Source of the DNA: a virus
Taxonomy: Duplodnaviria; Caudoviricetes
Direction: 5' to 3' (one strand)
DNA length: 42,784 nt
IMG/VR virus record: IMGVR_UViG_3300030329_004361
Coordinates: 1 to 42,784 of that record
Translations under genes and position numbers: made by a program
Notes under the pieces: model-generated
Told to the model about the DNA's origin: nothing
What the model saw: only the letters and a program-made list of their open reading frames with translations
Database searches by the model: none
Shown here: piece after piece, positions 20,025-39,700 of the stretch
Layout: every line of letters starts with the position of its first letter
How positions within the stretch are numbered: the first letter of the stretch is position 1

Positions 20025-20568
20025 CTGCTGTGCTCCTTTCGTGTTCAATGACTTCCGCTGTTATTTCGGGGACCATTTGCTTCATGCGTTCACTGATCTT
20101 CTCCAGACGCCTCGACGGGTCAGCGTCCGCCGTGACGGTTTCCACCTCAATCTGCTTGGGACTCTCAGCACCCCAGATCCGCCGGATGTCCTCCAGAGCC
20201 TTCAGGGCGCTGGACAGGAACTGGGAGTTGCCGCTGGATTGGCTGGTGGTCGTCTCCCGGTAGACCCCGTCCTTGGTGTCCCTCTCATGGACAACGACCT
20301 TCTCACCCTTGGAATCGTGCCATGCGGACATGGCCTCCATCGCAATGTGACGCAGGGTCTCCGTCTGCCCGGACTTGATCCTGACCACGTTGTCGGACAG
20401 GTCCTGATAGATCGCCTTCTCGATCCTCTTGAACTGCTTGGAGACCGTGTTCGGGTGGATTGCCAGAACCTCCGCAGCGGCACGCTGGGTGGTCCTGTGC
20501 TGGACGTACTTCTCGTACTCGTCGAGCAGAGCCTGAGATGGCCTCCACTCCGTATTACTACCTGCCAT
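19870..20568 (-). CDS. terS: Terminase small subunit (HTH)
   Basis: N-terminal HTH 'TQRAAAEVLAIHPNTVSKQF', helical core, 'IRRIWGAESPKQIEV'. Upstream of terL. Confidence 0.7.
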   Translation of the reverse strand: MAGSNTEWRPSQALLDEYEKYVQHRTTQRAAAEVLAIHPNTVSKQFKRIEKAIYQDLSDNVVRIKSGQTETLRHIAMEAMSAWHDSKGEKVVVHERDTKDGVYRETTTSQSSGNSQFLSSALKALEDIRRIWGAESPKQIEVETVTADADPSRRLEKISERMKQMVPEITAEVIEHERSTADEQPILEGDATVEVLPKEGQSGRKSGEDAGTPEGVLPGLRIVHEDENPEHD

Positions 20569-21034
20569 CTAGGTACCCCCGGCACTTGGCCCAGTACTGG
20601 TCGGTCCCACGCTTGCTCGGGCCACCATTATGGAGCCTACAAAGCTCCTCCGCAGACCAAGGCAGGCCGGTCGCGTACCGATGCCAGTACGCCAGCATGA
20701 CCCGCTTTGCGACCTCCACGTCCTTCACCTGCTCGTACTCCAGACCCGCCAGAGACGGATCGTGCTCCACGGCATCCAAGAAGTAGGGTTCTTGGATCTG
20801 CATTGGCCCCAGAGACCTCCCACCATCACCCACGGCGTTGGGCGGGTCTGGGTGGCCCCCGGTCTCTGCCAGCCTGATGGCCCGGAATACGTCCTCCAGA
20901 CCGATCAGGTCAGGGCCAGAAGCCTCCTCTACGGGCTGAGAATCGACCTCCACCACGGCGTGCTCATGCCCGTGAAAGGCCAACCACGCCAACGAGGACG
21001 ACAGGGCGGCAGCTAACAGCAGAATCTTGGTCAT
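20558..21034 (-). CDS. Lysozyme-fold endolysin (i-type/destabilase-like) with N-terminal signal/anchor
   Basis: 'AIRLAETGG...GDGGRSLGPMQIQEPYFLDA...RLHNGGP...YWAK'. Hydrophobic N-terminus from ATG 21034 with AAGGGAG RBS. Confidence 0.8.
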   Translation of the reverse strand: MTKILLLAAALSSSLAWLAFHGHEHAVVEVDSQPVEEASGPDLIGLEDVFRAIRLAETGGHPDPPNAVGDGGRSLGPMQIQEPYFLDAVEHDPSLAGLEYEQVKDVEVAKRVMLAYWHRYATGLPWSAEELCRLHNGGPSKRGTDQYWAKCRGYLDGR

Positions 21035-21104
21035 TTCGTGCTCCCTTGTAAGATGTGTACCACTGTATCGGCTGATTTTACCCCAAGCGATAAAAAATTC
21101 CAAT

Positions 21105-21629
21105 CTTTCGCTTAGCTTTCGCTTATCTTTCGCTTAGCTTCCGCTAAACTTCCGAACCATGGTGTAGCAGAGACGCAGAGGGCGCAGAATGCGCACAATG
21201 CGCAGAATTGCCGCATTGAATGAAAAACCCGGTTGAGGGTTATTCACGAAGGTGTAGCAGAGACGCAGAGTAGCAGAGGGTGCAGAGTCTTAGAGTCTTA
21301 GAAGTCATGACTCTGCTCTCTCTGCACTCTCTGCTACACCCCGGCTACTACCCGGCTACTACCCGGCTAAACCCGGCTGAAGTGGATACGGGGTGGATAT
21401 GAGGTGGATATGCTACTGGGCATGCCCACCAGCCAGAAAGCGGCCTCAGACCTCGTCAGTGGGGTTTTTGGGACCACCAAGTGGGCATGCCCACCCCGTA
21501 TCCACCCCGTATCCACCTCATATCCACCTCATATCCACCTCATAACCACCCCCCGTAAAACCCGTCACCTAGCTGTCGGGTTTTATCTACTCCCAGCCTA
21601 CTCCCAGCCTACTGACAAGCTACCCCCCC
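21105..21629. repeat. Cluster of unrelated short tandem repeat families (9- and 11-bp period), some with inverted copies
   Basis: CTTTCGCTTAG-type x5, GCAGAG/GCGCAGAAT series, CCCGGCTACTA x4, GTGGATA x3 with inverted TATCCAC x4-5, CTACTCCCAGC-type x4. Confidence 0.9.
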
Positions 21630-21898
21630 TTCTCAAAATTTGCGCGCAACGAGCGGGAAAACGCTACCTCCCCTAAGCCGGTTCCTGAACGGGGTGCAGG
21701 GTCAGAGGCAGAAGCGGAGCACGCTCGCGCGGCGACGTACGAAAAGAATTTTTTGGGACTCCGAAGGCATAGGCTATACCCCGCGCGATCCTCATAACGC
21801 GATGAGACCGGCCCAGATCCAGCCCTGGCGGTGATTCGATCGTTGCGATTCCCGATTTCCGCTGCGCCAGATACCGCTTTCTTCTGGAAGCGGTATCT

Positions 21899-22083
<185 letters not shown>

Positions 22084-22343
22084 GGCAGGCTAGGTGGTGC
22101 ATCAATATGAGTGCAGTTCCATCATCCCCCCGCCCAGACTTAGTCTGCCGCCAGATTCAGACCACGTCAAGCCACTGGGACACAACCAGCGTATTCCTGC
22201 GGAAGCAGCACCGCAGCGTCCCGGCGGCGGCTGAATCTGGGAATATTCAGGATTGGTGAAAATTATTTTCACTTGCCGCTATCCCTGCCCTGATCAGGGT
22301 TTGCGTCTGCCGGAGGGGCTGGATTGGTGCGTTTCCCCTCGTT

Positions 22344-22377
22344 TTGTCATTGACAATGGGTGAAGAGGCTCTATGCT
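22344..22377 (+). promoter_or_regulatory. Sigma70-type early promoter with overlapping inverted repeat
   Basis: TTGACA (22350-22355), 16 nt, TATGCT (22372-22377). TTGTCA-T-TGACAA palindrome covers the -35. Confidence 0.7.
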
Positions 22378-22383
22378 TCAGGC

Positions 22384-22702
22384 CGATGAGTTGGTTGGCA
22401 GGGTGACCCAGTCACCGACAACATGGGATGCAAACGGGCCGAACATGAGGGCAACCTCGAAACCGGCAACCTGCGTTTGGAGCCGCAAAGACACCGGCAA
22501 GCAGGCCAATGCAAAGTCCACGGTGAGAGGATCACCGGCACCCCTGATCAAACCCAGACGCTCACTACCCGCAAGGGGAAACGCTTCGGCCAAGGCGAGG
22601 CACCGCCTGGGGATAAACAATAGATCGCTGCCCCGTGGCATGAGCAGCGTGCAACAACAAAACCACTTGCAGCGACCGGCCTGACGGCTGGTCGCTGTTT
22701 TC
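22384..22702 (+). ncRNA. Candidate structured non-coding leader RNA (~320 nt)
   Basis: Lies between the promoter and a terminator-like hairpin. Many short stems with GNRA loops. No ORF with the operon's RBS motif. Confidence 0.5.
22669..22702 (+). terminator. Intergenic hairpin element copy 0 (terminator-like)
   Basis: GCAGCGACCGGC-CTGACG-GCTGGTCGCTGT-TTTC. Confidence 0.7.
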
Positions 22703-22742
22703 ACCGGCAGTGAAGCGGAGGTTCTCGCCCACTATTCCAGCA

Positions 22743-22825
22743 ACTGACCACAACCGCGCTGCACCTCGACGGGTGCAGGGCGGCTTTCACACCAACCGCC
22801 GGTACGACCGGCAAGGAGCAGCACG
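22743..22825 (+). repeat. Intergenic double-hairpin/RBS element copy 1
   Basis: CCGCGCTGCACC-TCGACG-GGTGCAGGGCGG-CTTTC...GCCGGTACGACCGGC-AAGGAGCAGCACG-ATG. Confidence 0.85.
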
Positions 22826-23113
22826 ATGAAAAAGCTGTGCATAGATCTTCGCCACGAGCCGACGATCACCGAGCATCTCAGTGCTTACCATCCCGGCGAG
22901 CACTACGAGATTGTGGATATTCGCGGAGGCGAGGGTACCTGTGCAATCGAGGCTGATGACGCCCTGCTCGACGCCGTGAGACAGTTTCTCGCCTCATGGC
23001 GGCTGGGGTGCTGGGACCACGTCTACGATCACCCCGACGAGGACGAGGATATTGATATTGCACGCTGGGACTGGGAGAGGGCGAATCCCCACCGGCCCCG
23101 GTACTACGACTGA
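22826..23113 (+). CDS. Small acidic early protein
   Basis: 95 aa with AAGGAGCAGC RBS. Confidence 0.8.
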   Translation: MKKLCIDLRHEPTITEHLSAYHPGEHYEIVDIRGGEGTCAIEADDALLDAVRQFLASWRLGCWDHVYDHPDEDEDIDIARWDWERANPHRPRYYD

Positions 23114-23191
23114 CCACAACCGCTCCAGCCCCCTGACCGGGGCGGGGCGGCTTTCGACCGGCAATTACGCCGGGCAACAAGGAGCAGCAGC
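23114..23191 (+). repeat. Intergenic element copy 2
   Basis: CCGCTCCAGCCCC-CTGACC-GGGGCGGGGCGG-CTTTCG-ACCGGCAATTACGCCGG-GCAACAAGGAGCAGCAGC-ATG. Confidence 0.85.
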
Positions 23192-23617
23192 ATGGCGCAG
23201 GCAACAAAAACCCGGTGGCAAGATCTGATTCTCTGGGACGGCACGTCTGAGATCGGGATCACGCTGGAGTACGACGACGAGGGGTTTGAGGAGATCGTCC
23301 GCAGGTATCGCGACACGGGCGAGATCCACGGCTACTGGCTCGTCGATCCTCGCGACTACGAGGACGACGACTACGACGGCCTCGACTCGGGACCGACCCC
23401 GGACGAGATCGACTGGGAGGGCCTCGACGAGATCACGCTCGACTGGGACTTGGCGGCGGACTGGGCCGTTCCCTGCCCCGGATGCGGCGGGGAGGCCCAT
23501 CCCCTCGGCGTGCTGGGGGATCTTTGCCACTACCGCTGCCGAGACTGCGGTGGGGAGCACTCGTTGGCGCTGACAGACCACCACGCCCCGCGCCCTGGCC
23601 TGACGGCCATGCGATAG
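23192..23617 (+). CDS. Very acidic early protein with C-terminal zinc ribbon
   Basis: 141 aa, D/E-rich, CPGCGG...CRDCG. Confidence 0.8.
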   Translation: MAQATKTRWQDLILWDGTSEIGITLEYDDEGFEEIVRRYRDTGEIHGYWLVDPRDYEDDDYDGLDSGPTPDEIDWEGLDEITLDWDLAADWAVPCPGCGGEAHPLGVLGDLCHYRCRDCGGEHSLALTDHHAPRPGLTAMR

Positions 23618-23704
23618 ACCACCACCTACTCCGGCCCCGCTCAGCGGCGGGCGCCGGGGCTTCCTCCCCTCGGAATGGGCCGAGGGGCAACCAGGAGAGC
23701 AGCT
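23618..23704 (+). repeat. Intergenic element copy 3 (divergent)
   Basis: CTCCGGCCCCGC-TCAGCG-GCGGGCGCCGGGG-CTTC, second hairpin CCCCTCGG...CCGAGGGG, then CAACCAGGAGAGCAGCT-ATG. Confidence 0.75.
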
Positions 23705-23908
23705 ATGAACAGCACCAATGACCGTGGCCTCGTCCGCACCCCCGCTCAGGAGGCCGCGCACCAGCGACGGCTCAAGGTTCGGCGCCTTCGGCGGAGGTTT
23801 CCGCCCGCCCGCTACACGTCGCAGCGGTCCTACCACGGGGGGGGGCAGCACTCGATCCAGTTTTTCGATGTTGTTACCGGCGATCTCGCCGCCGACTACA
23901 ACCTCTGA
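23705..23908 (+). CDS. Small basic early protein
   Basis: 67 aa from ATG 23705 after AGGAGAGCAGC. Confidence 0.75.
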   Translation: MNSTNDRGLVRTPAQEAAHQRRLKVRRLRRRFPPARYTSQRSYHGGGQHSIQFFDVVTGDLAADYNL

Positions 23909-23978
23909 CCGCCGCCGCCCAGCCCCTCAACGGGGGCAGGGCGGATTTCACCGCAATATCGCGGGCAGGAGAGCAGCC
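23909..23978 (+). repeat. Intergenic element copy 4
   Basis: CCGCCCAGCCCC-TCAACG-GGGGCAGGGCGG-ATTTC-ACCGCAATATCGCGG-GCAGGAGAGCAGCC-ATG. Confidence 0.85.
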
Positions 23979-24290
23979 ATGCTTTCAATCAAGGTTTCGC
24001 GCGGGTATTCCGGTCGCATCACGGCGACCAGTTCTAACGGTCACCGAGCGGTGACCAGCTACGACGGGGGGAAGGGGGGTCTTGCGGAGAACTGCGCCAT
24101 CGCGGCGCAGGCGTGCATCGACAAGCACGGCCTGAAGCTCAACCTTGCGGATGCCCGCTGGACTATCGTCGATGGGCGAACAAAGCGGGGATTCATCATC
24201 TTCGCGTTTGAGCCAGTCAAGCCCTGCTGGCTGGAGAGCCTCAAGTTCGCGCGAGAGGAGATCAGCAGGGTCAACGCCGCCGCTGGGTGA
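23979..24290 (+). CDS. Early hypothetical protein
   Basis: 103 aa (MLSIKVSRGY...) from the RBS-associated ATG. Confidence 0.75.
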   Translation: MLSIKVSRGYSGRITATSSNGHRAVTSYDGGKGGLAENCAIAAQACIDKHGLKLNLADARWTIVDGRTKRGFIIFAFEPVKPCWLESLKFAREEISRVNAAAG

Positions 24291-24456
24291 CACTGGTGAC
24301 GGTGGTGACACCGATTTCCGGTTAATCCCACGAATGGTGGTGCATGGCTGTTCAACCCGCAATTAGTGGCCGAAAACGTCACAAACCCACCTGACGTGAC
24401 GGAAAGGCATTGTTTGGTGTCATCTGGTGTCACCACTGACACGACTGGTGTCACCC
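24285..24456. repeat. 172-bp segment bounded by GGGTGACAC/GTGTCACCC inverted repeats, with internal GGTGAC iterations
   Basis: GGTGACACT-GGTGACGGT-GGTGACACC on the left and three GGTGTCA copies on the right. Confidence 0.8.
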
Positions 24457-24524
24457 GCCCTGCACCCTACCGGGTGCGGGGCGGCTTTACCGGCCATGCC
24501 GCCGGGCAACAAGGAGCAGCAGCC
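24455..24524 (+). repeat. Intergenic element copy 5
   Basis: CCGCCCTGCACC-CTACCG-GGTGCGGGGCGG-CTTT-ACCGGCCATGCCGCCGG-GCAACAAGGAGCAGCAGCC-ATG. Confidence 0.85.
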
Positions 24525-25775
24525 ATGGAAAACGAGACAGTGGAGTTGACCTTCCGAGTCCGCGAGCACGACGTTGAAACGCTCAGGACGAAGGTCGCGA
24601 AGATCAACCGTCGTGCGAACAAGCTGGGCGTTGCCCCAGTCGCGGTCGAGGAAGTTGGACGCACGTTCAGCAAGCCGATCCTCGACAAGGAGCGGTCGCG
24701 GCTCGCCCGGGCGGGGTTCTGGATCGTCGAGTTCCGAGCAGTCGGCGAAGCGCCGAAGTTGCCGGGCTGGTCACTAGTTGCCCGGCTCGAACATGACCCG
24801 GCCATCGGCACGCTGGTTCACGCAGTGCCGGGTCGCGACGTGCCGAAGCGGTTTCGAGACGGCACGTTCGTCGAGGGCAAGCCGGTCTGCGATCACTGCA
24901 AGACACGACGTGTCCGCAAGGACACGTTCGTCGTCCACAACGACGACGAGGGGTTCAAGCGGGTCGGCAGGAATTGCATCGTGGACTTCCTCGGCGGACA
25001 GTCTGCCGAGGACGTGCTGCGGCGTTTGTCGTGGTTTGCGGACTGGACCTCTGACCTCGGTGCGTTGGACTTCGACGAGGAGTCCGACGATCGCGAGTGG
25101 TCGAACGATCCACGCTTCGATCACTTCGACCTGGAAGTTCTCCTGGCCAAGGTCGTGCGAGTGATCCACGCCGAGGGCTGGTGCAGCCGAGGCGAGGCAC
25201 GGGACGCGGACAAGCTGGCGACCGTGGACTGGGCGGTCACGTTGTTGACCGCTAAGAACCTCAAGCTCACGCCGGAGGACGTGGAACGCTTCACCGTGAC
25301 CGATCAGGACGTGGCCGATGCCAAGGCCGCGATCGACTGGGCTGCTGGCCTGCCCGGCGAGTCCGACTTCGAGAGCAACATCTCGAAGATAGCGAGAGCC
25401 GGGATCACGTCGATGCGTTCGATCGGTCTGGCCGGGGCGATCCCGACGGCTCACGCTCGGCACCTCGAACGCGAGGTGAAGCGGAAGTTCGAGCGAGAAT
25501 CCACGCTCGACGAGTTCTTCGGGGCGGTCGGTGAGAAGATCAACCGGAAGCTGACGATCCTCGCGATCAAAACGATGGAGTCGCAGTGGGGCGTCACGAC
25601 GCTCTTCAACTTCCGCGACGATGATGGTCGCTTGTTCTCTTGGTTCTCGTCCATCGACCGGATCGACGAGAAGTTCAAGGTCGGGCAGGACGTGACGGCA
25701 AAGGCCACGATCAAGAAGCACGACAAGTTCAAGGGCGTGCGGCAGACGATGATCACCCGGGCCAAGCTGGCCTGA
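24525..25775 (+). CDS. Zinc-binding, OB-fold-like nucleic-acid-binding phage protein
   Basis: 416 aa with 'CDHCKTRRVR...VGRNC' and a C-terminal OB-like 'GAVGEK...FRDDDGRLFSWFSS...ATIKKHDKFKGVRQT'. Confidence 0.75.
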   Translation: MENETVELTFRVREHDVETLRTKVAKINRRANKLGVAPVAVEEVGRTFSKPILDKERSRLARAGFWIVEFRAVGEAPKLPGWSLVARLEHDPAIGTLVHAVPGRDVPKRFRDGTFVEGKPVCDHCKTRRVRKDTFVVHNDDEGFKRVGRNCIVDFLGGQSAEDVLRRLSWFADWTSDLGALDFDEESDDREWSNDPRFDHFDLEVLLAKVVRVIHAEGWCSRGEARDADKLATVDWAVTLLTAKNLKLTPEDVERFTVTDQDVADAKAAIDWAAGLPGESDFESNISKIARAGITSMRSIGLAGAIPTAHARHLEREVKRKFERESTLDEFFGAVGEKINRKLTILAIKTMESQWGVTTLFNFRDDDGRLFSWFSSIDRIDEKFKVGQDVTAKATIKKHDKFKGVRQTMITRAKLA

Positions 25776-25882
25776 CCCCCGCACCCTCCCTTGACGGGGA
25801 GGGGCGGGTTTGGCATTGACAAAGCATTGTGGTATCATGTACCCACAAGACCGGCAATTACGCCGGGCAAAGGAGCAGCAGC
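25776..25882 (+). repeat. Intergenic element copy 6 with an internal promoter
   Basis: CCCGCACCCTCCC-TTGACG-GGGAGGGGCGGG-TTT. The ACCGGCAATTACGCCGGGCAA 21-mer is identical to copy 2. Confidence 0.8.
25810..25838 (+). promoter_or_regulatory. Second early promoter
   Basis: TTGGCA, 17 nt, TATCAT with an extended TG. Contains TTGGCATTGACAA, one mismatch from the motif at 22344. Confidence 0.55.
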
Positions 25883-26092
25883 ATGTTTTTGAGATTGGAA
25901 TGGGACAAGCGGTCGGAAGTGGAGCGAAGCCAAGACGGTCGGCGAGTTGTTTTCGCCGTGCCAGTCGAAGGCGACGTGAGCAATACGGAGATGCTTGAGG
26001 CGGTCGCCGGTCAGATCACGACGGCCAACGTCGAGGGCATCAAGAGATTGGGTACGACCAAGGGTCTGGTTCTCGTCTACGTCCGGCAATAA
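25883..26092 (+). CDS. Small early protein
   Basis: 69 aa (MFLRLEWD...) with AAGGAGCAGCAGC RBS. Confidence 0.75.
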   Translation: MFLRLEWDKRSEVERSQDGRRVVFAVPVEGDVSNTEMLEAVAGQITTANVEGIKRLGTTKGLVLVYVRQ

Positions 26093-26115
26093 CGTCGGGA
26101 AAAAGGAGCAGCAGC

Positions 26116-26286
26116 ATGCGAATCATCATGACAGCGGCGGTCCTCGCGACCGCCATAGCGTCACAGGGTTGCGGGACCGTGCGTGCGACGTTGGACGCCT
26201 ACAGATCTGTCACGAACGCGGCGGTTGACGACCTGCTTGCAGCGGTCGATGGCGTTGCCGACAGGGAGGATGACGATGCCCGATGA
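26116..26286 (+). CDS. Small lipoprotein (entericidin-like)
   Basis: Not in the ORF track. MRIIMTAAVLATAIASQGCGTVRATLDAYRSVTNAAVDDLLAAVDGVADREDDDAR*, with AAGGAGCAGCAGC RBS and SQG-C lipobox. Confidence 0.7.
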   Translation: MRIIMTAAVLATAIASQGCGTVRATLDAYRSVTNAAVDDLLAAVDGVADREDDDAR

Positions 26287-26485
26287 CGTTGCGACGGCAA
26301 TCAGCGAGGTGGTCTGGAAGTCCGGGTCACTTCGGGTCGGCACCCTTCGCATTCGGGTGCAGATCATGGACGTGCGTGACCGCTGGGGCCAGATCGAATA
26401 CCTCGTCGAGCCGATGGATGGCAGCGGCGAACAGTGGGTCGGCGCCCAACTCGTAGACCTCAAGACGCAAGGAGAGCAGCGATGA
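26270..26485 (+). CDS. Small beta-barrel (SH3-like) phage protein
   Basis: 71 aa with GGGAGG RBS and 'VQIMDVRDRWGQIEYLVEPMDGSGEQWV'. Confidence 0.7.
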   Translation: MTMPDDVATAISEVVWKSGSLRVGTLRIRVQIMDVRDRWGQIEYLVEPMDGSGEQWVGAQLVDLKTQGEQR

Positions 26486-27096
26486 ACAACAGCAGCCACA
26501 AGGGGGAAAGGTTCCTCCCGCAGGTTCTGAGTCAGGACGAGGTCAACGCGATGATCTCGATCTGCAACCCGGACTCACTGTCCGGGGCGAGGAACCGCGC
26601 GATCGTCGCGGTCCTGTACCGTTGCGGTCTCCGGGTCAGCGAGGCGCTGGCACTGAAGACCAGCGACCTCGACTTCGATAGCGGCATCGTCCGGGTGCTT
26701 CACGGCAAGGGCGACAAGGCACGAACCGTGGGCATCGACGACGCCGCTTCGGAGATGGTGCAGCACTACCTGACAGAGCACCGGCACAAGGTTGACGACG
26801 GACCACGGGTCTTCGTGACCTACACCGGCAGGCCGGTGCTGCCCCGCTACGTCCACACGATGATGGTGAGGCTCGCCCGGTGGGCAGGCATCAGCAAGCG
26901 GGTTCACCCGCACGGACTGCGACACACGCACGCTCACGAACTTGAGATGGAGGGCGTGCCGGTCAGCGTGATCGCGAAGACGCTCGGACACGCCTCAATT
27001 CACACGACGAACACTTACCTCAATCACATCCATCCGACCGCTGCGGTGAACGCGATCCGTGGCAGACGATGGACAACCCAAGGAGCAGCACAATGA
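26482..27096 (+). CDS. Tyrosine recombinase, catalytic domain only (XerD/FimB-like)
   Basis: 204 aa with all catalytic residues: GLRVSE (R), GKGDK (K), HGLRH (HxxR), LGH, and TTNTY (Y). Confidence 0.93.
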   Translation: MNNSSHKGERFLPQVLSQDEVNAMISICNPDSLSGARNRAIVAVLYRCGLRVSEALALKTSDLDFDSGIVRVLHGKGDKARTVGIDDAASEMVQHYLTEHRHKVDDGPRVFVTYTGRPVLPRYVHTMMVRLARWAGISKRVHPHGLRHTHAHELEMEGVPVSVIAKTLGHASIHTTNTYLNHIHPTAAVNAIRGRRWTTQGAAQ

Positions 27097-27344
27097 CAAA
27101 GCTGGAAGGCAAACTGGCGTGGGTCCACTTCGGATCTGATCGCCGCAAGTGGATCGGGTATCGACAGGTGCAAATCATGCGAGTGGACCGGGATCGCAAG
27201 GGCAACATCAAGCGGCTCCGGGTTCAGGCGTACAACCCCTCGACCGACAGGTTCGACGGGCGAGCGTTCGCATTGAACAGCAGCGAGTGGACCGGCGAAG
27301 GACTCGGCGTCGTGTTCCGACGGAAGCTCAAGGAGATCAACTGA
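27093..27344 (+). CDS. Small basic protein
   Basis: 83 aa, AAGGAGCAGCAC RBS, ATGA-coupled. Confidence 0.75.
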   Translation: MTKLEGKLAWVHFGSDRRKWIGYRQVQIMRVDRDRKGNIKRLRVQAYNPSTDRFDGRAFALNSSEWTGEGLGVVFRRKLKEIN

Positions 27345-27556
27345 TGAACTGCCCAGTTTGCGGAGGAAACATGGAGCAGCAGGCGTGCGGTGCGGTGGCC
27401 TGCTCCTCCTGCGGTGAACACGACGTGCCTGCCGACCTGCCTTCCGTGCTCGCGACATGCACGGTCTGCGGGTGGCAGGCACCGCAGCGACCGAAGGCAC
27501 CGCAGTTTGTTTCGGACCCAGCGTCGGCGGAGCGTTCCGCCGACGACACACGATGA
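27344..27556 (+). CDS. Zinc-ribbon protein
   Basis: 70 aa with CPVC, CSSC and CTVC; AAGGAG RBS. Confidence 0.7.
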   Translation: MNCPVCGGNMEQQACGAVACSSCGEHDVPADLPSVLATCTVCGWQAPQRPKAPQFVSDPASAERSADDTR

Positions 27557-27578
27557 CCCTGACACAAGGAGCTACTCG

Positions 27579-27758
27579 ATGAAGACGAAGAACAAAGCCG
27601 GACGACGAGCAGAGAACGGAGTGAAAATGAAGTGCTACTCAACCTCACTGACCCCCATGGAGCGGCGACGGTGCGGAGCACTGGCGAAGGCCGAGGGCTT
27701 GACCTACAGTGCGTGGTCGAGGAAGACCCTGATCGCTAAGATCCCCCCATGCAAGTGA
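27579..27758 (+). CDS. Ribbon-helix-helix-like DNA-binding protein
   Basis: 59 aa with strand-helix-helix pattern 'CYSTSLTPMERRRCGALAKAEGLTYSAWSR'; AAGGAG RBS. Confidence 0.6.
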   Translation: MKTKNKAGRRAENGVKMKCYSTSLTPMERRRCGALAKAEGLTYSAWSRKTLIAKIPPCK

Positions 27759-27781
27759 TCCCCAGCCTTTCTCCTCTCTTG

Positions 27782-27819
27782 ACCCTCACCCGGGTTCGCC
27801 CGGGTGGGGGTTTTTTTTT
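27782..27819 (+). terminator. Intrinsic terminator ending the early operon
   Basis: CCCTCACCCGGG-TTCG-CCCGGGTGGGGG followed by T9, at the convergence point of the two operons. Confidence 0.9.
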
Positions 27820-28220
27820 GGCCTCATTTTCGCCGCAGCCTCGACGAACTCACGACGGTCCCCGTCCTGAAGATCGAACGCTGCCCTCAACATGTCCCTC
27901 GTCTCATGAGTGAGCAGGGCGTCAGGCCAGCGACGGATGATCGTCCAGCCGAGGGCAGCAGCCCAAGAGTACTTGTCGGCATCGTCCTTGAGCCGCTTGA
28001 CGCTGCTATGCCCTGACCGGGGAAGCTGTCGGCATGCGGGGCATCGCCGCCCGGAGCCGAAAAAACCACCCTCGATTTCGAGGGCCACCATGTGCTCCGG
28101 CCATGCGTAGTCGAACCGGAACCGGCGGGTCGATAGAACCCGGTGCTCCTCGACCGGGTCAGGCAGACCAAGCTGGGCCACCAGCGCCCTGATTTCCAGA
28201 CTGTAGTCGCGTCCACTCAT
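27786..28220 (-). CDS. PD-(D/E)xK endonuclease (DUF559/Vsr-like)
   Basis: 'EHRVLSTRRFRFDYAWPEHMVALEIEGG...DADKYSWAAALGWTIIR' with an inserted CPAC. Confidence 0.8.
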   Translation of the reverse strand: MSGRDYSLEIRALVAQLGLPDPVEEHRVLSTRRFRFDYAWPEHMVALEIEGGFFGSGRRCPACRQLPRSGHSSVKRLKDDADKYSWAAALGWTIIRRWPDALLTHETRDMLRAAFDLQDGDRREFVEAAAKMRPKKNPHPGEPG

Positions 28221-28273
28221 CGTCGCGATCCCTCAAAGCGACCTCGTCTCTACGAGATCAGAAAGATAGCAAA

Positions 28274-28383
28274 TCCGACCGTCGGAACCGACGTACCGTC
28301 GGGGCCGCCATCCAGTGCATCAGGATGCAACACGGCGCGGCATCCTGCACCCGACGGTTCCCCGACGGTTCCCGACGGTTGGA
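28274..28383. repeat. Convergent ACCGTCGG / CCGACGGTT repeat module
   Basis: ACCGTCGG x2 at 28278 and 28295; CCGACGGTT x3 at 28351-28380. Confidence 0.8.
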
Positions 28384-28384
28384 T

Positions 28385-28615
28385 TCACTCATCGTCACGC
28401 TCCCTCAACATGCCATCCGCTGCTCCACCGAGAGCCTTGGGATGGATTGATATTGGCCGACCTCTAGCCTCATGCACAGCGGCGTCCACGATCGCATTGT
28501 CCTGGTTTAGACGCTCCCAGAGGCAACGCTTGCAGAACAGGCCGTCAAAGGTAACGGCGTCCTTGACGCAGTCGTGGCAGCGACCATCGTCTCTAGCTAC
28601 CAGTGGAAGGGTCAT
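28385..28615 (-). CDS. Small zinc-finger protein
   Basis: 76 aa with CHDC...CKRC; AAGGAGG RBS. Confidence 0.7.
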   Translation of the reverse strand: MTLPLVARDDGRCHDCVKDAVTFDGLFCKRCLWERLNQDNAIVDAAVHEARGRPISIHPKALGGAADGMLRERDDE

Positions 28616-30677: not shown

Positions 30678-30705
30678 ATTCTAGCAGATCAGCCCGCCCT
30701 GTCAA
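30678..30705 (-). promoter_or_regulatory. Sigma70-type promoter for the replication module
   Basis: Minus strand TTGACA, 16 nt, TAGAAT with an extended TG; overlaps the end of the giant gene. Confidence 0.75.
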
Positions 30706-33700
30706 CCGCCTTGTCCTCCCGATCACGACGCTCGCGAATGATTGTGTCCTTGGCACGGCTCCTGCCACGGCGGATGAACTTCTTGATCCTTTCGATGTCG
30801 CGTTCGGTCGGGTTCTCGTAGTCGAATCCCCAGCCCGACGCACGCTCAAGCGCGTACTCTCCGGCAAGTTTCAAGAACCGATGATACTCGGGGTCGGACA
30901 TGACGTAGCTCTCGCCGTCACGCTTGAAGTTCTTCTTGGGCTGCGTTGGGTACAAGCCATCGTTGGGATTGGTGACGTTCCAGATCCTGATCATCGTGTT
31001 CAACTTGTGTGCGTCACTCGGATCGTAGTTATAGATACGGGTCATCGACGCGATCGACATCTTGAGAAGCCAGTCCCCGACAGGATTGCCAACCCAGTCG
31101 CCACGCTTCACGTCCCGGCCCCACAATTCCACCTTCGGTGACGGTGCAAGCTGGGCCAGAGGGAGAGCCTTCTTCCCGAGCATTGTCATGCCGCTAGTCC
31201 ACCACTCGCCGGTGCCGATCTCACCGCCCGTCCTGTACTCTCGATAAAACGGATCGGATTCCCTCGACGCCTGCCTGACGATGTTGGGAACGAACGCCAC
31301 GCCGGTGTCGGTGAGGAACCGCATGACGCCAGACTCGGTCGGCTCGGTCAGCAGCGTGATGATGTCCTTGAAACCACGCATCGAACTCTGGTCGGAAAAC
31401 AGGTTGACCGCACTTTTCAGCCCGTCCGCCAAAGCCGCCATCGTTGCCTTGTCGTTCTTCGCCTCCTTGATTGCGTCAACCGCATCAACCATTGTCGCCA
31501 GTGATATGTCCAGCGGAGAGAAGCCCTGGTAAGAAATTCTCTCATTGGTGAATGGAACCCGGATCGTGTACGGCGCGGCGACCCGGTACTGCTCGCCTCG
31601 TTTCGACGAGTGTTTTTCCGCCGAGCCTGTGATGTTGGGCAGACCATCTTCCTCGTCCGGCCCCTCCGCGTAGGCGACCATCGACATGAAGATTGTCCAC
31701 GCGATCAACTGCTCGGCCACGTCCTCGACCACCGCTTGCCGTGTGCTTACGGACCCGAGGTTGTTCATCGTGTGGTAGTCGTAAGTCGAGTCCCATCCCA
31801 TCTTGGCCCGGCCCAGCCTGCCTAGCTTCCACGCCAGACGCAGTGAACCGATCGGCGTCTTCTTCCCAGCGACACGGGCAATGTTCCACGGGGTCGTGAA
31901 GAATGGCAGCTTGTACCTGATGCCGGGTATCAAACCTCGACCCTTCAGCAAGAACTCTCCGACAGGGTCCAGCTTCTCCTGATAGGTCAGACGCAACGCC
32001 TCGTCATAGGCTGCGACCCACGCCTCGCTCTGCTTGTCACTGGTTAGTTCGATCATGCGGTTCGTCATAGCCTGACCCTGCTTCTTCTCTCGAAGCGCGA
32101 TGCGGTGGGCCATGACCTGAGCATGTTGCGTTGCGATCGCCGTCTGGAAGAACTGATCCATCGAGAGGGCCATACGCTGCGACCATCGCCAAGCCCTGCC
32201 CCTTCGCCCTGCAATCTTGGGTCCACGCCTGCCCTTGCCGGTAAGCTCCAGCCGGGCGGAGCCGAAGCGGTCGGTCGCGGAGCCGACCTCGTCGCTGAAC
32301 ACGACACGCTCCATTGCCCAAGACTCTCGGAAGTTCTCTATCGCCTCCGGCATGGACTGGATCAGTCCCTTGATGATGTGCTTGAACTCGCCAAACGTAG
32401 CACCGCCTGCCCTGCTTCCGGGCGTGACCGTATTCAAAAAGGCGGAGGTGAAACGCTGTGCGGTAAGCTCCCACGTCGCGTTCAACGTGTTACCAACTAC
32501 GTTGCGAAGCACCGTGCCGGTGCCGGACATCAGACCGGAGCGGAAGAACTCAAACTGTTTGTCGAAGTAGGTCGAGTCGGCGATGCTGATCTGGTTGATC
32601 ACGTTCGACACAAATCGCGGGTCTTTCCAGTTGTTCTTCGCCGATGCGAGGTCTACGCCCGCCGCCTTCAACTTCTTCTTCAACCCAAGAACACGCTTCT
32701 TCGCAGACTCAAGAACCTCGTCGATTCTCTTCTTCGCATGCTCATGTGCCACCGAGCCGTCAGGGTTGGCACGCAGGATCTTCTTCAGTTTGCGGAGCTT
32801 GTTCTTCTCGGGGACGGTGAAGGCAAGCAATGCATCAAGAGCCGCTTTTCTGTTGGCTATTGATGGGTTCTTCTCTTGGTCCTGCCGCATGCGACCGGCC
32901 TGCGACCACTGCTCGCCAGTGTCACGGTAGCCGGACCACATCCGCAGAGCTTCCTCGACCGCCTTCTCAGAGTCCGTGTCACGCCCAAACTTCTGATGTT
33001 CAATGAGCGCGTTCCACGACTTGGCCTCCAGAAGTTTGCGTGCAGCCCATGTCTCCCATGGTTCAAGATCCTCGCCGCGTTCAACCTTCTTGATAAGCTC
33101 GTCCACCTTTGCCTGCTTTGTCTCGTCGGTCGTGGCGTCCTCAAGGAACTGCTCGGCACGTTCCCTCACCGCCTGATCGCTCTCGCTTACCTTCCGGCCT
33201 TGGTATCCAGCGCTGGCCCTGATCTCATCCACTGCACGCAGGGACTCAACAGACTCCGGCGTGAACAGTGCCTCGGCAAGGTCCGCGTCCTCGGCACGCC
33301 GCTCTCCACGGTCACGCCGCTTGGCACGACGCTCCATCACCTTCCGCCACTCGGCGGGAGTGATCTGCTGGAAGCGGGTGTCCTCCGTGGACGGGTCGAA
33401 CCGCTCGGACAACGGGATCACGTTGCCAGCGTCGTCGCGGGTCACGGGTTCGGCGGATTTGATTTGGGAGGGGTTGCGAACAGCGACTGTGTTGGGGGGC
33501 TTCCCTAGCGTTTCCTGAATGATCATCCCGTCGTAATCTTCCAAGACTGCATCAACAACAGCGCGAGCCTCCCATATCAAATACCCTCCATTCTCTACCG
33601 CGTCTCTCACTTGCGAAGACCAGTTATTTTCTTGCTCACCAACAACGTCCTCAAGCAGGGGCAGATACTCCCTCCAATGTTTTCTGGGATCAAACAGTTT

Positions 33701-36700
33701 GGGGGCTTTTATGTGGGCGTTGACTATGTTGATCCCCATCTCCATCTCTGCTTCGCCAACAGTCATGCCATCCAACCGCCTCCTTTCAAAGGCGTCTCGT
33801 TTCTTGAAAATATTTTCGTACCGCCCCATTGCCCCCGGCTTTTTTACATCAAACTTGCCATGCTTTTTTGCATCTTGTTCAAACAGCCTGTCGGTATGGA
33901 TACTGGACTCTTCTTTGACCTTGCTGATTCGCCTTGCGATCTCGGGAGGAGGAACTCTATGCCCTCCGGTTCCCCTAGCATAATCCTTTGCGAAGTCCTC
34001 GCTAAAGGAAAAGTAGAACAGGTCGGAGGGATCGCGTCTATGCTCAAACGTATGGAACTTCTGTTTTGTTCCATGATATACCGGGCCAACGTTATACCCC
34101 GCAGCCTCCGCCGCATCATCCACCATCTTCTGCAACTCGTCCCGGTTGGCTTCGGGATCTCTAGCCAGTTCCATGTACCTGCGGTTGACCGCTGCGGGTA
34201 CTGGCTGGAAGCGTGGGTCGTGCTTCCCGCTTCCCCGTTTCTTCGCAGGTATTCGCTTACCTTCGTCGTCCTTGGTGACGGGATCTGTGAGCTTGTATTG
34301 TCTCGCGTCGGACTTCTCGGCGACTGCGTCCCTGTTCTCTTTCACAAACTTGCCGCCGTCCACACGAAGCTGCGGCCTGACCTTCTTGCTGCGTAGAATC
34401 TTGTTCGCCTCTTCATGGGTCAAGAGCCTCTTTACCTTCAGGCTCCCGGCGATTGACCATGTCCCGGGGGCTTCAGCCGTCGTGGTATTCGTGTCGTAAT
34501 CGTAATAACCATCTACGGGAACATCTCGCAGCCCGGACTCGCGAGGGTTTATATCACCCTTGCCCGTTCTCTTCGCTGTTCTCTCGTATTCCTCTTGATA
34601 GTTTTTGTCAGCCGCAACTTCCACTTCCGCAAACACGACGTTTTTATAAAGTTTGTATTTCCACGGGCTGGTCTTGCTTGGGGTGACGACTTCTCCTGCA
34701 CCCTGCGGGTTGAACGGCAATGTCCCCGTGTGCCACCCGGGCCGAAACGCCAGAAACTTTGCGGTCCTGCCCTTGATCCCGGCCTTTCTCAGCCTTTTTA
34801 TGGACTCTGGCGTAAACGTGCTCAAGCTGCGAGACTGTCCAGTTTCGCCAAGAACGTATTGCCTTTCGCCAAGTGTTTCGTATGCTCCGCCGCCCTGCTT
34901 GGCGTCGAGCCATACCCCCATGGGTATGTTGTCTTTTGCCCCAACGTAAAGGGGACGGAGGTGTCCTTCTACTATCCTGAACGCCTTGTACCTCGTCACC
35001 GTTTTCTTGGGGGTAGCACCGCGACGGACAGAGTACGCCGGAACATCCGAGGCAAACCCTTCGTCTTCGGGGTTGTCAAACGTCAGGGTTCCCTGCTTGT
35101 GCTTGAACGCGGGAGGCCGCTGGGCCTCTTGGAATCTGGCGGCCTCTGGATTCCATTTCCCCTCCGCATCACGGAACGCAGCCTCGCCTTCAACCGACCG
35201 ATGAGTGTCTGCATCACCATAGTCGTCGAAGACAGGGATCTGCTCCCTGATAGAAGCAAATCCTCCGTCCTTTCTCGCGGGAACCTCGGGAAGGCCAGTC
35301 AACCCGTCCACGTCCCGCACCATCAAAACTATGTTGGGCTTGCCTGCGAGGTCGTACGGCCAGTTAGGAGGCGCGTACTCATCGTTCCATGTGAGGATGG
35401 CCGCTGGGCGAAATCCGTGGTTCCCGTACAGCGTGGGCAGGAAGCCATCAATGTCGTACCCGTCGAGGGTATTTGAAGACTTCCCCGCTTCATTCAACAG
35501 AAGGTTGATGTTTGCCTTGGAGTCCGGGTGCTTGAATACCGAAACAAGATCACCCCCGTCCGTTACCGCAACGCCGGAAAGCAAATCCTTCGTCAGGTAC
35601 AGATGGTTATCTGGGTCTTGGTAGAAGTCGAGATCCTTGACTTCTACCGCCGCGCCCAAGGGGTGGTCCCTTGCGGTCGCTGCTATTCCATCTCGGAATT
35701 GTCGCCCCCGAACTGTAGGGTCAACCCTGCCCCCAACGACCTCATCTTCTCGCGGTGTATTTTCTGCGACTCTTCCTTCGTCCTCGACCGCACCCTCTGT
35801 AGATATTGCTGCACGGTCTCTCTCGAAGCGGGTGAGGCCCGCTTCTCTTGTTCTTCGTTCCGCCGCTTGGAATTTTGCTGTTCTGACATTGCGTGGCTCC
35901 TGTTTCTCTAGTGTAGCTCGGGCCTTGGCCGCAGGCAAACCAACAGCGGTCTCTGGGTTTTCCTCCGCCCCCTTCGCCCGGTTCTCCTGAAACTCCCGAA
36001 CGCTGGCCCGCATCTCCTCGGCGGTTGGTGGTCTCAGAACGTCGCTTTCATCGTCGTGAACGGCGGACCCCGCCACGCGAACAACGTCGTTGAGTTTGCT
36101 CGTCCCCACTCCCCCCACCCGCTTGGACAGAGGGGTCGGCCCCATACCAGCCCGGGTTTTGATTTCCTTCTCCAGAGCCTCGTTCTCTACTTTCTCCAGT
36201 TGCTCTAGTTTTGCTCTTATGTTTTCGTCGGTGATCCGTCCGCGATCCACCGCGCCATCGCCTTCTTCAGCGACCCCGGCTCGTAGTTTTCGTCGAACTC
36301 CCTTTGCTGGGCGTTTAGGTTTGGCGTCGGAAGCGATGCGTTTGCGGGGCTTGGTGAAGGCTCCGCTCTTGTCTTTCTTTCCTTGGAGTTCGAGGACGCC
36401 TTCCTTGTACTCTGTTGTGACTGCCCTTGCTGCTGTGCCATAGTCCAAATCCTTTTCTGTTTCTTCTGACGAATCTTCGCCTTCGGAGGTTGTGATCCCG
36501 GTTCCCTTGACACCAAGGTTCGTCCACAACTGCTTCTCATGATACCACATCATCGCCTGAAAATCAGCCATCGTGATCTTTGTGGGAGCACCTTTCTTTG
36601 TCCCGTAGATAGCCTTGATGTCTTCGGCGTGTTCCTCTGAGAACTTGTCGATGGCCTTGGCGGTTATTTCCCTTTGCTGGACGCGGTCGTTGCCGTTCTT

Positions 36701-39700
36701 CGGCGTGGCGTACACGCCGAACATGCTGCTGTATATTCTGCCAGCGGCCTTGAACTCATCGGTAGTGACGGCGGCTCTCTCCTGCTGACGCCACAGCGCC
36801 GCCTTCAACACATTCTCCATCAAGGCATCTGTCTTTTCCTCTGTATTTCCCGTGTATTCTTCAAGCCACTTGCTGTCTTTCTCTTTAGCCCTTGCTTTTG
36901 CCCATCTCAACAGGGAGTTGTAGTATTTTTTCCCTTCCTTGTCTAAGTCTTTTTTCGTGCCGGTAACCTCTCGCCCCTCGATTCCCCGACCCTTCAGTTC
37001 CTTGTTGTATATGTTTGACGTTGCGGTCGAGGTAAAGACGCTACCGTTTTTGGCATTCAACGCAACTGCGTAGCGGACAATGTTGCTTCCCACAAATTCC
37101 TCGTCGGACATACCTTTGATGACTGACGCTTTCTCTGTTTGCACGCCTTTGCCCAAGTACCTCGCGACGTTGGCAGGATCTATCACACTGACAAAACTCG
37201 GCAGCGTTTTGTTCTTTTGCTTCTTCGTCTCAGTGGAGTTCTCCCTTGCCAATTTGACGTTTCTCGAAAGAAGAGTTCCTCTGAGCCTTCCAATCGTCCG
37301 AGACCACCACAAGTCCATCGTCAACGTGTCGAACCGTTGGTTCAGGTTATTGAAGAAACTCCCCAGTTTGGGACCGATCATCGACGCGGCAGGAACCTCC
37401 GTGTCTACAAGCTCGCTTTTGATGTCGAACCCAAGTTCCTGATTCATGTACTTGACTTTGAACTTCGCCGCGAGGAATTTATCTGTCGCCTCCCACCCAT
37501 AGGTATCTATGAGGTCCAAGGCTTCTTTCATCTTTTCGGGAAGGTCGCCCCTCTTGAACTTCCCTTTGATCCCCCCTGAGTCCCGCCATATTGCATAGGA
37601 GTTGATGGCGTTTCGGAAGTTGGCACCGACCTTTTCGCCGTCGCTCGTTATGGCGAGCATCAGCTTGAAGACCAAGCGTGCCTCGCCAGTGGTCTTGCCG
37701 TTGGGGAGAATCTCGTCCGTAATGACAATCCCCGCCTTCTTGGCGGCTGGGTCTGTGTTATATGTGTACGCAAGCTCGGGGAAGATGAATGAAAGCTCGT
37801 CGAGCGCCTCTTCAATTATTCTTCCGTACCAGCCAATGGCCTTGTCCCTATCTTCTTTTGTGATGTCCGACTCAAAAGCGACTGCGCCCTCCGCCGCCAT
37901 CGCCTCCGCCAGCAATTCCTTCTCGTCGGCGGACAAATCCCGAACTTTTGCCCCCGGGATTGGGAGAGGAGCAAATCCCGTCTTCTCCATGTTCGATCTG
38001 ATTTCATTCTCAAGCCATGACGCAGCCTCGAACACGACAACCGTGTCGGAGTCTTTCTGGGCCTCGCTCCTCACTGCTTTTATCACTGGGATCTTGCGGT
38101 TCTTTAGAGACGCGCGATCCTTCCACCTCCCGTCGAGGATGCTCTTGACCAAATCTATCTGTCGCGTGACATACGCCTTCCGCTGATCCTCGCTGATCGT
38201 CTGCAACTTCACGCCTTCGGCTCCGCCTTCACCCGGCTCCCGTGCCGTCTCTATGAGGCGGGGCAGGTCGCGGAAGATCCGTCTCGCCTCACGCGAGTCG
38301 AAGTTGAGGAACAGCCTGTCGGCGAGGTTACGCCAGAAGTCTGCGAACTTGCGGAAGATTGGATTCTTCGCCTGCGAAAGACCATAAGCCTGATACGCCT
38401 CGGCTACCGTTTCCTCCGCGTCCCTTGAATACCGTCCAGTCTGTGGGTCTCGCGATTCTCCGGGGGCGTACTTGCGGAACAGGTAGTCCTGCTCACTCTT
38501 GGTAAGAACCAGATCCATCGCGAGGTGGAAGACCTCATGCGGGATCGTGGTCAAGTCGCTCACGCCGGTGAGTAGGATGATGCTCTCGGCATCTATCTCC
38601 TTGCCGCCCACATTCAACTTCGCCCCGACCAAGTCTTCTTGACCAAGGTAAACCCCAGCGCCCATAAGATCCGGTCTGTCCTCCGGCGTGAACGCGCCGA
38701 ATGTTCTCTTCGTCAACGGCTCGCGGACCCTAGCAATGCGGACCTTCTTGCCAGCGACCTCTACCTCTACCTCGCTGCCCTCCGACCCGGGGACTACCTT
38801 TACCTCCGCGCCCCGGAACATCCTCCTGATCATGTTCACTTCGTTCTTGGAGAAGCGATCTCTTGTCAGTTCCGTTCCGATCACGCCTTCCTTGCCCGGC
38901 TTGCCTGCCGTGCCAAGGATCTGCTTGTTGCTCAGGACGAGGCGGTCCCGAGTTGCACGGTGCTTCTTCGCTTGTTCCTCCGACACGCCCTTCTCAAGAA
39001 GCTGATCAACGAGAACGATCTGGGCCTCGTTCTTCAGAAGCTGGTCAACCTGAGCCTCTGTAATATCAGGGACTCCCTGAATCCTGGCCTTGATTCTCCT
39101 CGCTGCCTCCAGCCTGACACGGGCGTCAGCACGGTCCTGCTGCTCCAGCGCCGAGATGAGGCTGTCGATTCTCCGGTGTCCGGCGCTGCGGGGCGTCGGT
39201 GCCGGTGCCGGTGTCGTGGCCTGCTGCTGCCTGCCCGGCGAGAGGATGTCGCCAAGGCGGGAGACGGCCTCGTCCCTTGTCTCGCCAAGGGGGGCGGCTC
39301 TCATCTCCGCCTCAATCAACTTGTCCACGGCGGCGATGTCGTTTACCAGCGACTCAATATGAAGACCTTCTTGGTGCGGTCTGCCCTCGAAGGGAGCCTC
39401 TATAGCTTTAGGATCACTCTCGATGTCCTCAAGCTGTGACTGGAGTTCGGCCCTTTGTGCTCGCAGGTCTGCGAGAGCCTCGGACTCTTCGGCTGCTTCC
39501 TCCTGAACCCCGGTCTCTGCGTTTACGATATTGCCTTCCGCATCAACCCTGTACCACTTCCCGTCAATCCTCTGCACCTGCGCCATGCTGTCACCAGCGG
39601 TGACCGTGATTCGCGTTGGCTTCCCCTTGGTTCTCTCGGTAGTAACTACTACCTCCGGCGGCGGCTCCGGCTTCTGATCTTCCTCTTCCACCTCTGCCTC

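Follow-up and report, generated by a model that had tools for sequence, protein, structure and literature searches.

Two-hairpin elements between the early genes of a marine phage: a probable RNA punctuation unit and recombination linker

The stretch of DNA analysed here (the window), all 42,784 bp of IMG/VR record IMGVR_UViG_3300030329_004361, is an entire, circular-mapping phage genome that is present in marine metagenome runs. Its gene products include a terminase, a portal, a 3832-aa polyvalent protein and a DUF1376-type replication protein, and nearly all of its genes lie on the minus strand. A single plus-strand block of about 12 small genes runs from 22350 to 27781, and seven copies of a two-hairpin element separate genes within it. 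This array is probably a mostly promoterless RNA punctuation unit, similar to the PeSL (promoter-early stem-loop) elements of T4-type phages, and at the same time a recombination linker, while the tyrosine recombinase encoded downstream likely works on a separate palindrome.

The early block and its repeated unit

The features of the block are as follows.

22350..22377, plus strand: predicted sigma-70 early promoter, TTGACA-16-TATGCT (consensus match only)
22669..22753, plus strand: copy 0, with hairpin 1 (22669-22698), T run, degenerate hairpin 2 and gene-less unit (hairpin scan)
22754..22828, plus strand: copy 1, with hairpin 1, CTTTC, hairpin 2, Shine-Dalgarno (SD) sequence and ATG of g1 (hairpin scan)
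22826-23113, plus strand: g1, 95 aa (gene calls)
23120..23194, plus strand: copy 2, ahead of g2 (hairpin scan)
23192-23617, plus strand: g2, 141 aa (gene calls)
23629..23707, plus strand: copy 3, the most divergent, ahead of g3 (scores 16 bits when left out of the model)
23705..23908, plus strand: g3, 67 aa (Arg-rich N-terminal helix and three-strand sheet)
23915..23981, plus strand: copy 4, ahead of g4 (hairpin scan)
23979-24290, plus strand: g4, 103 aa (gene calls)
24455..24527, plus strand: copy 5, ahead of g5 (hairpin scan)
24525-25775, plus strand: g5, 416 aa, phrog_2319, function unassigned (family match)
25778..25885, plus strand: copy 6, with hairpin 1, TTT, predicted sigma-70 promoter (25810-25838), hairpin 2, SD and ATG of g6
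26078..26286, plus strand: linker with hairpin 2 only, and g7, 56 aa, lipoprotein-like (NF038104 match weak, below cut-off)
27781..27819, plus strand: canonical intrinsic terminator closing the operon, TTCG loop, 9 T (terminator prediction)

In most copies the unit consists, in order, of a stop codon, a short C/A-rich spacer, hairpin 1 (12-13 bp), two to four T, hairpin 2 (stem of 4-8 bp, loop often AAT-NN-C), an SD of the AGGAG-CAGCAGC type and ATG. An earlier reading of the letters and open reading frames (the sequence-only reading) had proposed a T run after each stem, mostly followed by a second hairpin, ribosome site and start codon. That layout is borne out, and all seven stems and hexaloops lie where it had placed them. 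Its statement that most copies begin right after a stop codon is true of four of the seven, which directly follow the stop of a real gene (gaps of 6, 11, 6 and 2 nt), but copy 5 lies 164 nt downstream and copy 0 sits behind the leader. Read-through of in-frame stops across the elements was considered and rejected: two of four tight junctions are in frame, which is within chance.

The copies are linked by exact identities of 11-24 nt. These include the 15-nt junction of copies 1 and 2, which is exact and supports the earlier observation that the gene-less unit between copies 0 and 1 keeps the junction of copy 2. The copy 0 unit carries a 73-nt, 74% repeat with the g3 end and copy 4 (D6), and this gene-less unit resembles a lost gene's 3' end. 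An open frame at 22640-22747 is broken only by a TGA within the copy 0 loop; its second half is like the C-terminus of a small protein and is possibly a remnant of a lost gene.

Hairpin 1 keeps its pairing even though stem sequences differ, as had been claimed. With the alignment anchored on the loop and three bulges manually removed, pairing holds at 82 of 84 positions. The 5' arms have 3-11 of 12 letters in common among copies, compensatory changes are many, and a C-G closing pair is invariant (7/7) under a YYRVCS hexaloop. Dinucleotide shuffles (n=300) give a mean of 0.003 and a maximum of one motif hairpin, against seven observed, with a motif that was itself derived from the seven copies. 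When 16.6 kb around the array is scanned for GC hairpins followed by a short T tail, whatever their loop, the seven copies and the operon terminator are returned. The same loop-agnostic scanner counts seven within 4 kb at this site and no more than two in any of 249 other sequences (3.09 Mb in total).

Five of the seven stems carry one bulge or mismatch, in agreement with the sequence-only reading. The defects are not conserved. Copy by copy they are none, G.G at 8, a 5' bulge at 6, a 3' bulge at 6, A.A at 6, a wobble and a 5' bulge at 8, so that side, type and position all vary. The plus strand has five G.T wobbles in the stems, four T.G loop closures and no A.C oppositions. Because all nine G.T pairs fall on this strand, the sense strand appears to be the one that folds. 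RNA folding of the plus strand is equal or better in all seven copies, and DNA folding is better in six.

A covariance model, which had been proposed as a check, was built from six copies, copy 3 being excluded because it misaligned. Searched against the genome, it finds no further strong copy; its scores are 16 bits for the left-out copy 3 and 18.5 for the operon terminator. Rfam gives no match at the gathering score and six sub-threshold hits in 20500-28500, none of them on the seven copies. Among viral contigs, a hairpin-1 pattern has 11 matches, each single and unrelated, and a pattern of hairpin 2 plus SD has none. The hairpin-1 loop class also occurs on single terminators of unrelated phages (L003, L004, L008), on post-portal hairpins of the window and of a relative (L020), and on 4 of 65 canonical terminators versus 1.2% expected. 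In an unrelated viral contig, one unit is flanked by a near-identical pair of GC hairpins (L007:201-235 and 737-772), each with a CTCACC loop and a short T tail.

The last copy is unusual in that a predicted promoter separates its two hairpins, and hairpin 2 begins about 5 nt after the predicted transcript start. Since this promoter splits the pair, hairpin 1 appears to behave as an element of 3' ends and hairpin 2 as one of 5' ends. No gene after this promoter has a hairpin 1. The sequence-only reading had placed the recombinase in the operon of the array. It is indeed co-oriented and downstream, but this second sigma-70 promoter is predicted between the last hairpin and the recombinase gene.

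Two other features can be noted outside the units. A 175-nt module at 24284-24458 has GTGACAC/GTGTCAC inverted repeats at 9-12 nt spacing and is self-folding. It is kept in a relative (19 differences) in which both flanks are unrelated, and is possibly a protein-binding array, an origin or a small RNA. The 3832-aa polyvalent protein, encoded at 30689-42187, has an ART-PolyVal domain.

Probable gene exchange at the units

The early region of relatives is known from assembly joints and 30-nt loose ends among those listed, mostly in one run. The same strain, with its gene order unchanged, is present in runs X3 and X4, and no hairpin-to-hairpin joints occur among the joints listed for them, although contigs drop rare forms. 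Strains in run X12 are about 90% identical, and one X12 contig joins the leader (22642) to the start of g3 (23705), with a different hairpin 2 and SD ahead of the gene. Other X12 joints, of equal depth, connect a copy-4-like hairpin, a copy-1-like element and the C-terminal part of g2. In a 2869-bp contig from this run g7 and g10 are absent and g12 is replaced, the g10 deletion extending from start codon to start codon. These three genes all lack hairpin 1, and here the X12 breaks fall at the SD/ATG. In run X7 another hairpin 1 stands ahead of the hairpin 2 of copy 3, and in run X4 g5 is preceded by a hairpin 2 whose stem differs (GGGCA/TGCCC). One joint, 23691->25068 (side 27), was treated as weak. 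A recombinase scan of viral contigs gave 0 loci and a g5 scan one distant locus; the contigs of close relatives recovered by terminase-based scans were all too short to extend into the early region.

Whether gene content varies exactly at the element had been suggested as a check, and the outcome is looser than that. Genes are gained, lost, replaced and re-paired at the boundaries, but the breakpoints lie variously in the linker, in hairpin 2 and at the SD/ATG, and some occur at genes without hairpin 1. Because the joints in X12, X7 and X4 fall at differing parts of the unit, exchange points scatter rather than mark one base. The shared unit sequence would let genes be exchanged by homologous or micro-homologous recombination across the identities of 11-24 nt.

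Of the known systems compared, T4-type PeSLs, to which the sequence-only reading had also pointed, fit best. These are repeats of an intergenic stem-loop, SD and ATG in a variable early region, with indels at the units (PMC2839356, PMC4122927). In these accounts, crossovers are spread over the -10, SD and ATG parts and no dedicated recombinase is identified. The array is likewise a repeated stem-loop with SD and ATG, with indels and swaps in relatives at the elements and with scattered exchange points. However, each PeSL carries a sigma-70-like promoter, which is present here in one of the seven copies (copy 6), and has one hairpin rather than two with a conserved loop. Also, the genome here is 42.7 kb and podovirus-like, not T4-like. 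Mini-circles and terminator activity are among the PeSL criteria, whereas this array is known from sequence and contigs.

Possible processing, stabilisation or termination of the early transcript

The early transcript would be cut in the U-run by an RNase E-type nuclease, or sometimes terminated there. After a cut, hairpin 1 would guard the 3' end of the upstream gene and hairpin 2 the 5' end of the downstream gene. With both ends protected in this way, each small gene could become its own stable message. Similar intercistronic stem-loops flank a short U-rich possible cut site in the selective RNA processing and stabilisation elements of polycistronic messages (PMC10667835; RNase E motif, PMC5222698). 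Here, by contrast, the arrangement is repeated at nearly every early phage gene and marks gene-swap points.

Within this interpretation, processing and stabilisation of mRNA is somewhat better than an even bet, and weak termination is a close rival with just under an even chance. Intrinsic terminators are marked by at least five U (PMC13714241). All seven copies have tails of two to four T, versus 9 T at the operon terminator, and miss the canonical combination of a GC stem with at least five U. RNWUU, given as the RNase E motif in PMC5222698, matches six of the seven tails, a weak test of low specificity. Processing is slightly favoured because six serial strong terminators without re-initiation would be expected to silence the block. 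The sequence-only reading had kept an RNA termination or processing unit as its alternative, and this is now among the best-fitting readings. A single 261-nt contig over g7-g8 in RNA run X14 was not counted as evidence of expression.

Several points weigh against the view that the array is an RNA punctuation unit and recombination linker. In the relatives, what lies between joints and loose ends is often not known, joints at low likeness can stem from other organisms, and for the hairpin 2 variants divergence and exchange are not separable. Loop conservation in all seven copies exceeds the generic loop preference and needs either common descent or a binding protein. RNWUU is so short that any GC stem followed by TTT satisfies it, and the linker between hairpins 1 and 2 is just 4-7 nt in most copies. 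The cutting nuclease is assumed. Finally, a promoter immediately 3' of copy 6 suits termination better than processing.

The copies might instead be merely decayed terminators that were spread passively by gene acquisition and have little present function. Their short U-runs agree with this, as does the degenerate look of the copy 0 hairpin 2 and the empty unit. In addition, the hairpin-1 model gives ordinary terminators 31-34 bits, at loci that came from a copy-derived pattern. The kept pairs with their many compensatory changes, together with the replacement of hairpin 2 in relatives by different stems of the same shape, imply selection, and we consider passive decay unlikely.

A protein that binds the conserved loop is the basis of another possibility, in which the Arg-rich g3 protein would bind hairpin 1 RNA as N binds boxB and would control read-through or stability of the early operon, with an N/nut-like system repeated at each gene. 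The copy 2 loop, CTGACC, is one letter off the phi21 boxB hexaloop CUAACC, and UMAC loops such as phi21 boxB mimic GNRA (PMC12550061). By sequence, the hairpin-1 loop class resembles these GNRA mimics. The Arg-rich helix is conserved in eight clusters of g3 homologues (a ninth hit, a frameshifted g3, is not counted), and in two of these, from other phages, the N-terminal module is joined to unrelated C-termini. Also, g3 is the first matched gene behind the leader in one relative. We nevertheless regard this arrangement as improbable. The searches with g3 find no sequence or fold match to N proteins, its fold search gives no match at E<=0.001 and its Atlas entry is blank. The array repeats at each gene, whereas nut sites normally occur once per operon, and the loop class is found on ordinary terminators too. 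The 280-nt leader is not more structured than shuffles (z -0.56), a value that also ruled out a put-like structured leader.

Two observations concern g3 itself. At a G-run near 23837 a frameshifted form (P0166) occurs in five contigs and the intact form in 11, a difference due to assembly error or slippage at the G-run. The g3 homologues have Ala at the window's Gly.

The tyrosine recombinase and a candidate site outside the array

Two further features bear on the recombinase.

26482..27096, plus strand: tyrosine recombinase, 204 aa, catalytic domain only (R47, K76, H144, R147, H170, Y179) (family search, alignments)
21866..21901, no strand assigned: perfect palindrome, 14-bp arms and asymmetric 8-nt spacer, core TACCGCTT-N8-AAGCGGTA; lox-like, candidate double-stranded DNA site of the recombinase

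The enzyme had been called complete. It has all catalytic residues but no N-terminal core-binding domain, and XerD aligns from residue 102 and XerA from residue 130. The absence of an IntI insertion is confirmed: query residues 89-128 span IntI4 170-251, and XerA and XerD align without a gap. The TIGR02249 match scores 86.5 versus a cut-off of 265 and is split in two around the IntI insertion, and FimB/FimE families score 51-54 bits versus cut-offs of 221-222. The recombinase family is large (1601 hits, mostly of about 200 aa), with some members named from Acidimicrobiia/Actinomycetota. Homologues at a level of at least 92% are kept in related contigs. A tRNA-targeting integrase role was rejected as a general one for the homologues, since tRNA genes occur in 5 of 32 loci; one locus, L229, also has a separate 326-aa integrase.

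Cre/loxP- and Xer/dif-type sites have inverted arms around a short spacer. The palindrome at 21866-21901 has this layout (inverted arms around a 6-8 nt spacer), and it is the longest perfect inverted repeat in the genome with a 4-10 nt spacer. It resembles those systems further in being a single perfect palindrome in a circular-mapping phage genome with a tyrosine recombinase; the difference is that the enzyme here, like FimB/FimE, is a catalytic domain only. The core has no other match in the genome at five or fewer mismatches and none in 2.56 Mb of control DNA at three or fewer. It recurs in palindromes at 3 of 19 loci (L217, L221 and L222, with 0, 2 and 0 mismatches). Of 17 viral homologues, 14 have a half-site box in the 300 bp upstream, versus 95 of 760 control windows. 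With a matrix made from homologue half-sites, the palindrome arms rank 1 and 2 among 85,548 window positions, while the hairpins rank only 99-633.

This palindrome is thus likely, on the sequence comparisons, to be the recombinase's DNA site. By binding it, the enzyme would most likely resolve circular genome dimers. Some findings speak against this assignment. The box seed was taken from L217 and L222, which are themselves among the tested loci, and the 17 viral loci include two nearly duplicate pairs. When the seed was kept fixed and retested on chromosomal homologues, the result was 2 of 10 versus 19 of 87 controls, which is no enrichment. Five viral contigs have the exact palindrome core; two are known loci and three have no clade homologue in the fetched flank.

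Several chromosomal homologues show a GTCACG-type variant of the box, which was seen after the fact. Because the base of the recombinase tree is mostly unresolved, box type cannot be mapped onto clades. In the 300 bp upstream of recombinase genes (L210-L226, L237-L241), one box near the promoter and an inverted pair near the start recur, a layout that suggests autoregulation by the short recombinase family. Around and after the palindrome, 21833-22180 is a CAG-repeat-rich, strain-variable stretch where the X3 and X4 assemblies form bubbles. The interval 21103-21620, which lies between the divergent late and early blocks, contains several 11-nt tandem repeat sets and an inverted repeat of 33-36 nt with TATCCACC units, and these repeats are iteron/origin- or genome-end-like.

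The sequence-only reading had favoured a cassette system, in which the recombinase would recognise the hairpins as folded single-stranded DNA and excise or insert single genes, as in integrons. The array shares with integrons (PMC8618304, PMC8138268) tandem promoterless genes, structure-conserved hairpins between these genes and a nearby tyrosine recombinase. Hairpin structure kept despite sequence change, the gene-less unit with its common junction, the differing gene content at array boundaries among relatives, the conserved recombinase with intact catalytic residues, and a CCGC/GCGG core common to the stem base and the recombinase box could all be read this way. However, the three integron features that could be tested, an IntI insertion, R-boxes, and a folded bottom strand with fixed extrahelical bases, are all lacking. 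R-boxes in the form given earlier (RYYYAAC/GTTRRRY) occur within 15 nt in none of the seven copies, in agreement with the earlier remark that attC ends are missing, and no attI was seen. Stem defects differ in side, type and position, the sense strand folds better, and a stem of 12-13 bp would hold one half-site only. Breakpoints fall at no single position and also at genes without hairpin 1. The enzyme lacks the core-binding domain as well as the insertion, scores far below the integron cut-off, and is encoded co-oriented and downstream.

Co-occurrence of the element with the recombinase clade, another suggested check, was not found. The array is absent from all 24 homologue loci (18 viral and 6 chromosomal), at 39-49% identity for full-length matches, with L225 and L227 weaker or partial and with the closest clade (P0002-P0004, 57-61%) outside the comparison. 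What stands of the cassette proposal is the cassette-like variation, in that relatives lack, replace and re-pair genes. Its attC-like link to the recombinase is not supported, given also the better candidate site outside the array, and we judge an integron-like mechanism to be very improbable. The same low probability attaches to a phage gene-capture platform in which a minimal recombinase would use the palindrome as an attI-like double-stranded site and the hairpins, through the CCGC/GCGG stem base, as folded single-stranded partners. If true, it would be an analogue of integrons that evolved independently in phages.

No paper found in the open-access literature describes the double-hairpin element or the recombinase box. 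A probable RNA punctuation unit that also serves as a recombination linker would carry linker shuffling of the PeSL kind over to a small podovirus-like marine phage, here with two hairpins and mostly without promoters. Because of that form, the array suggests that swappable early genes have a post-transcriptional rather than a promoter-based autonomy. Possibly more useful is the candidate box and lox-like site for a widespread family of catalytic-domain-only tyrosine recombinases, which makes recombinase activity directly testable.

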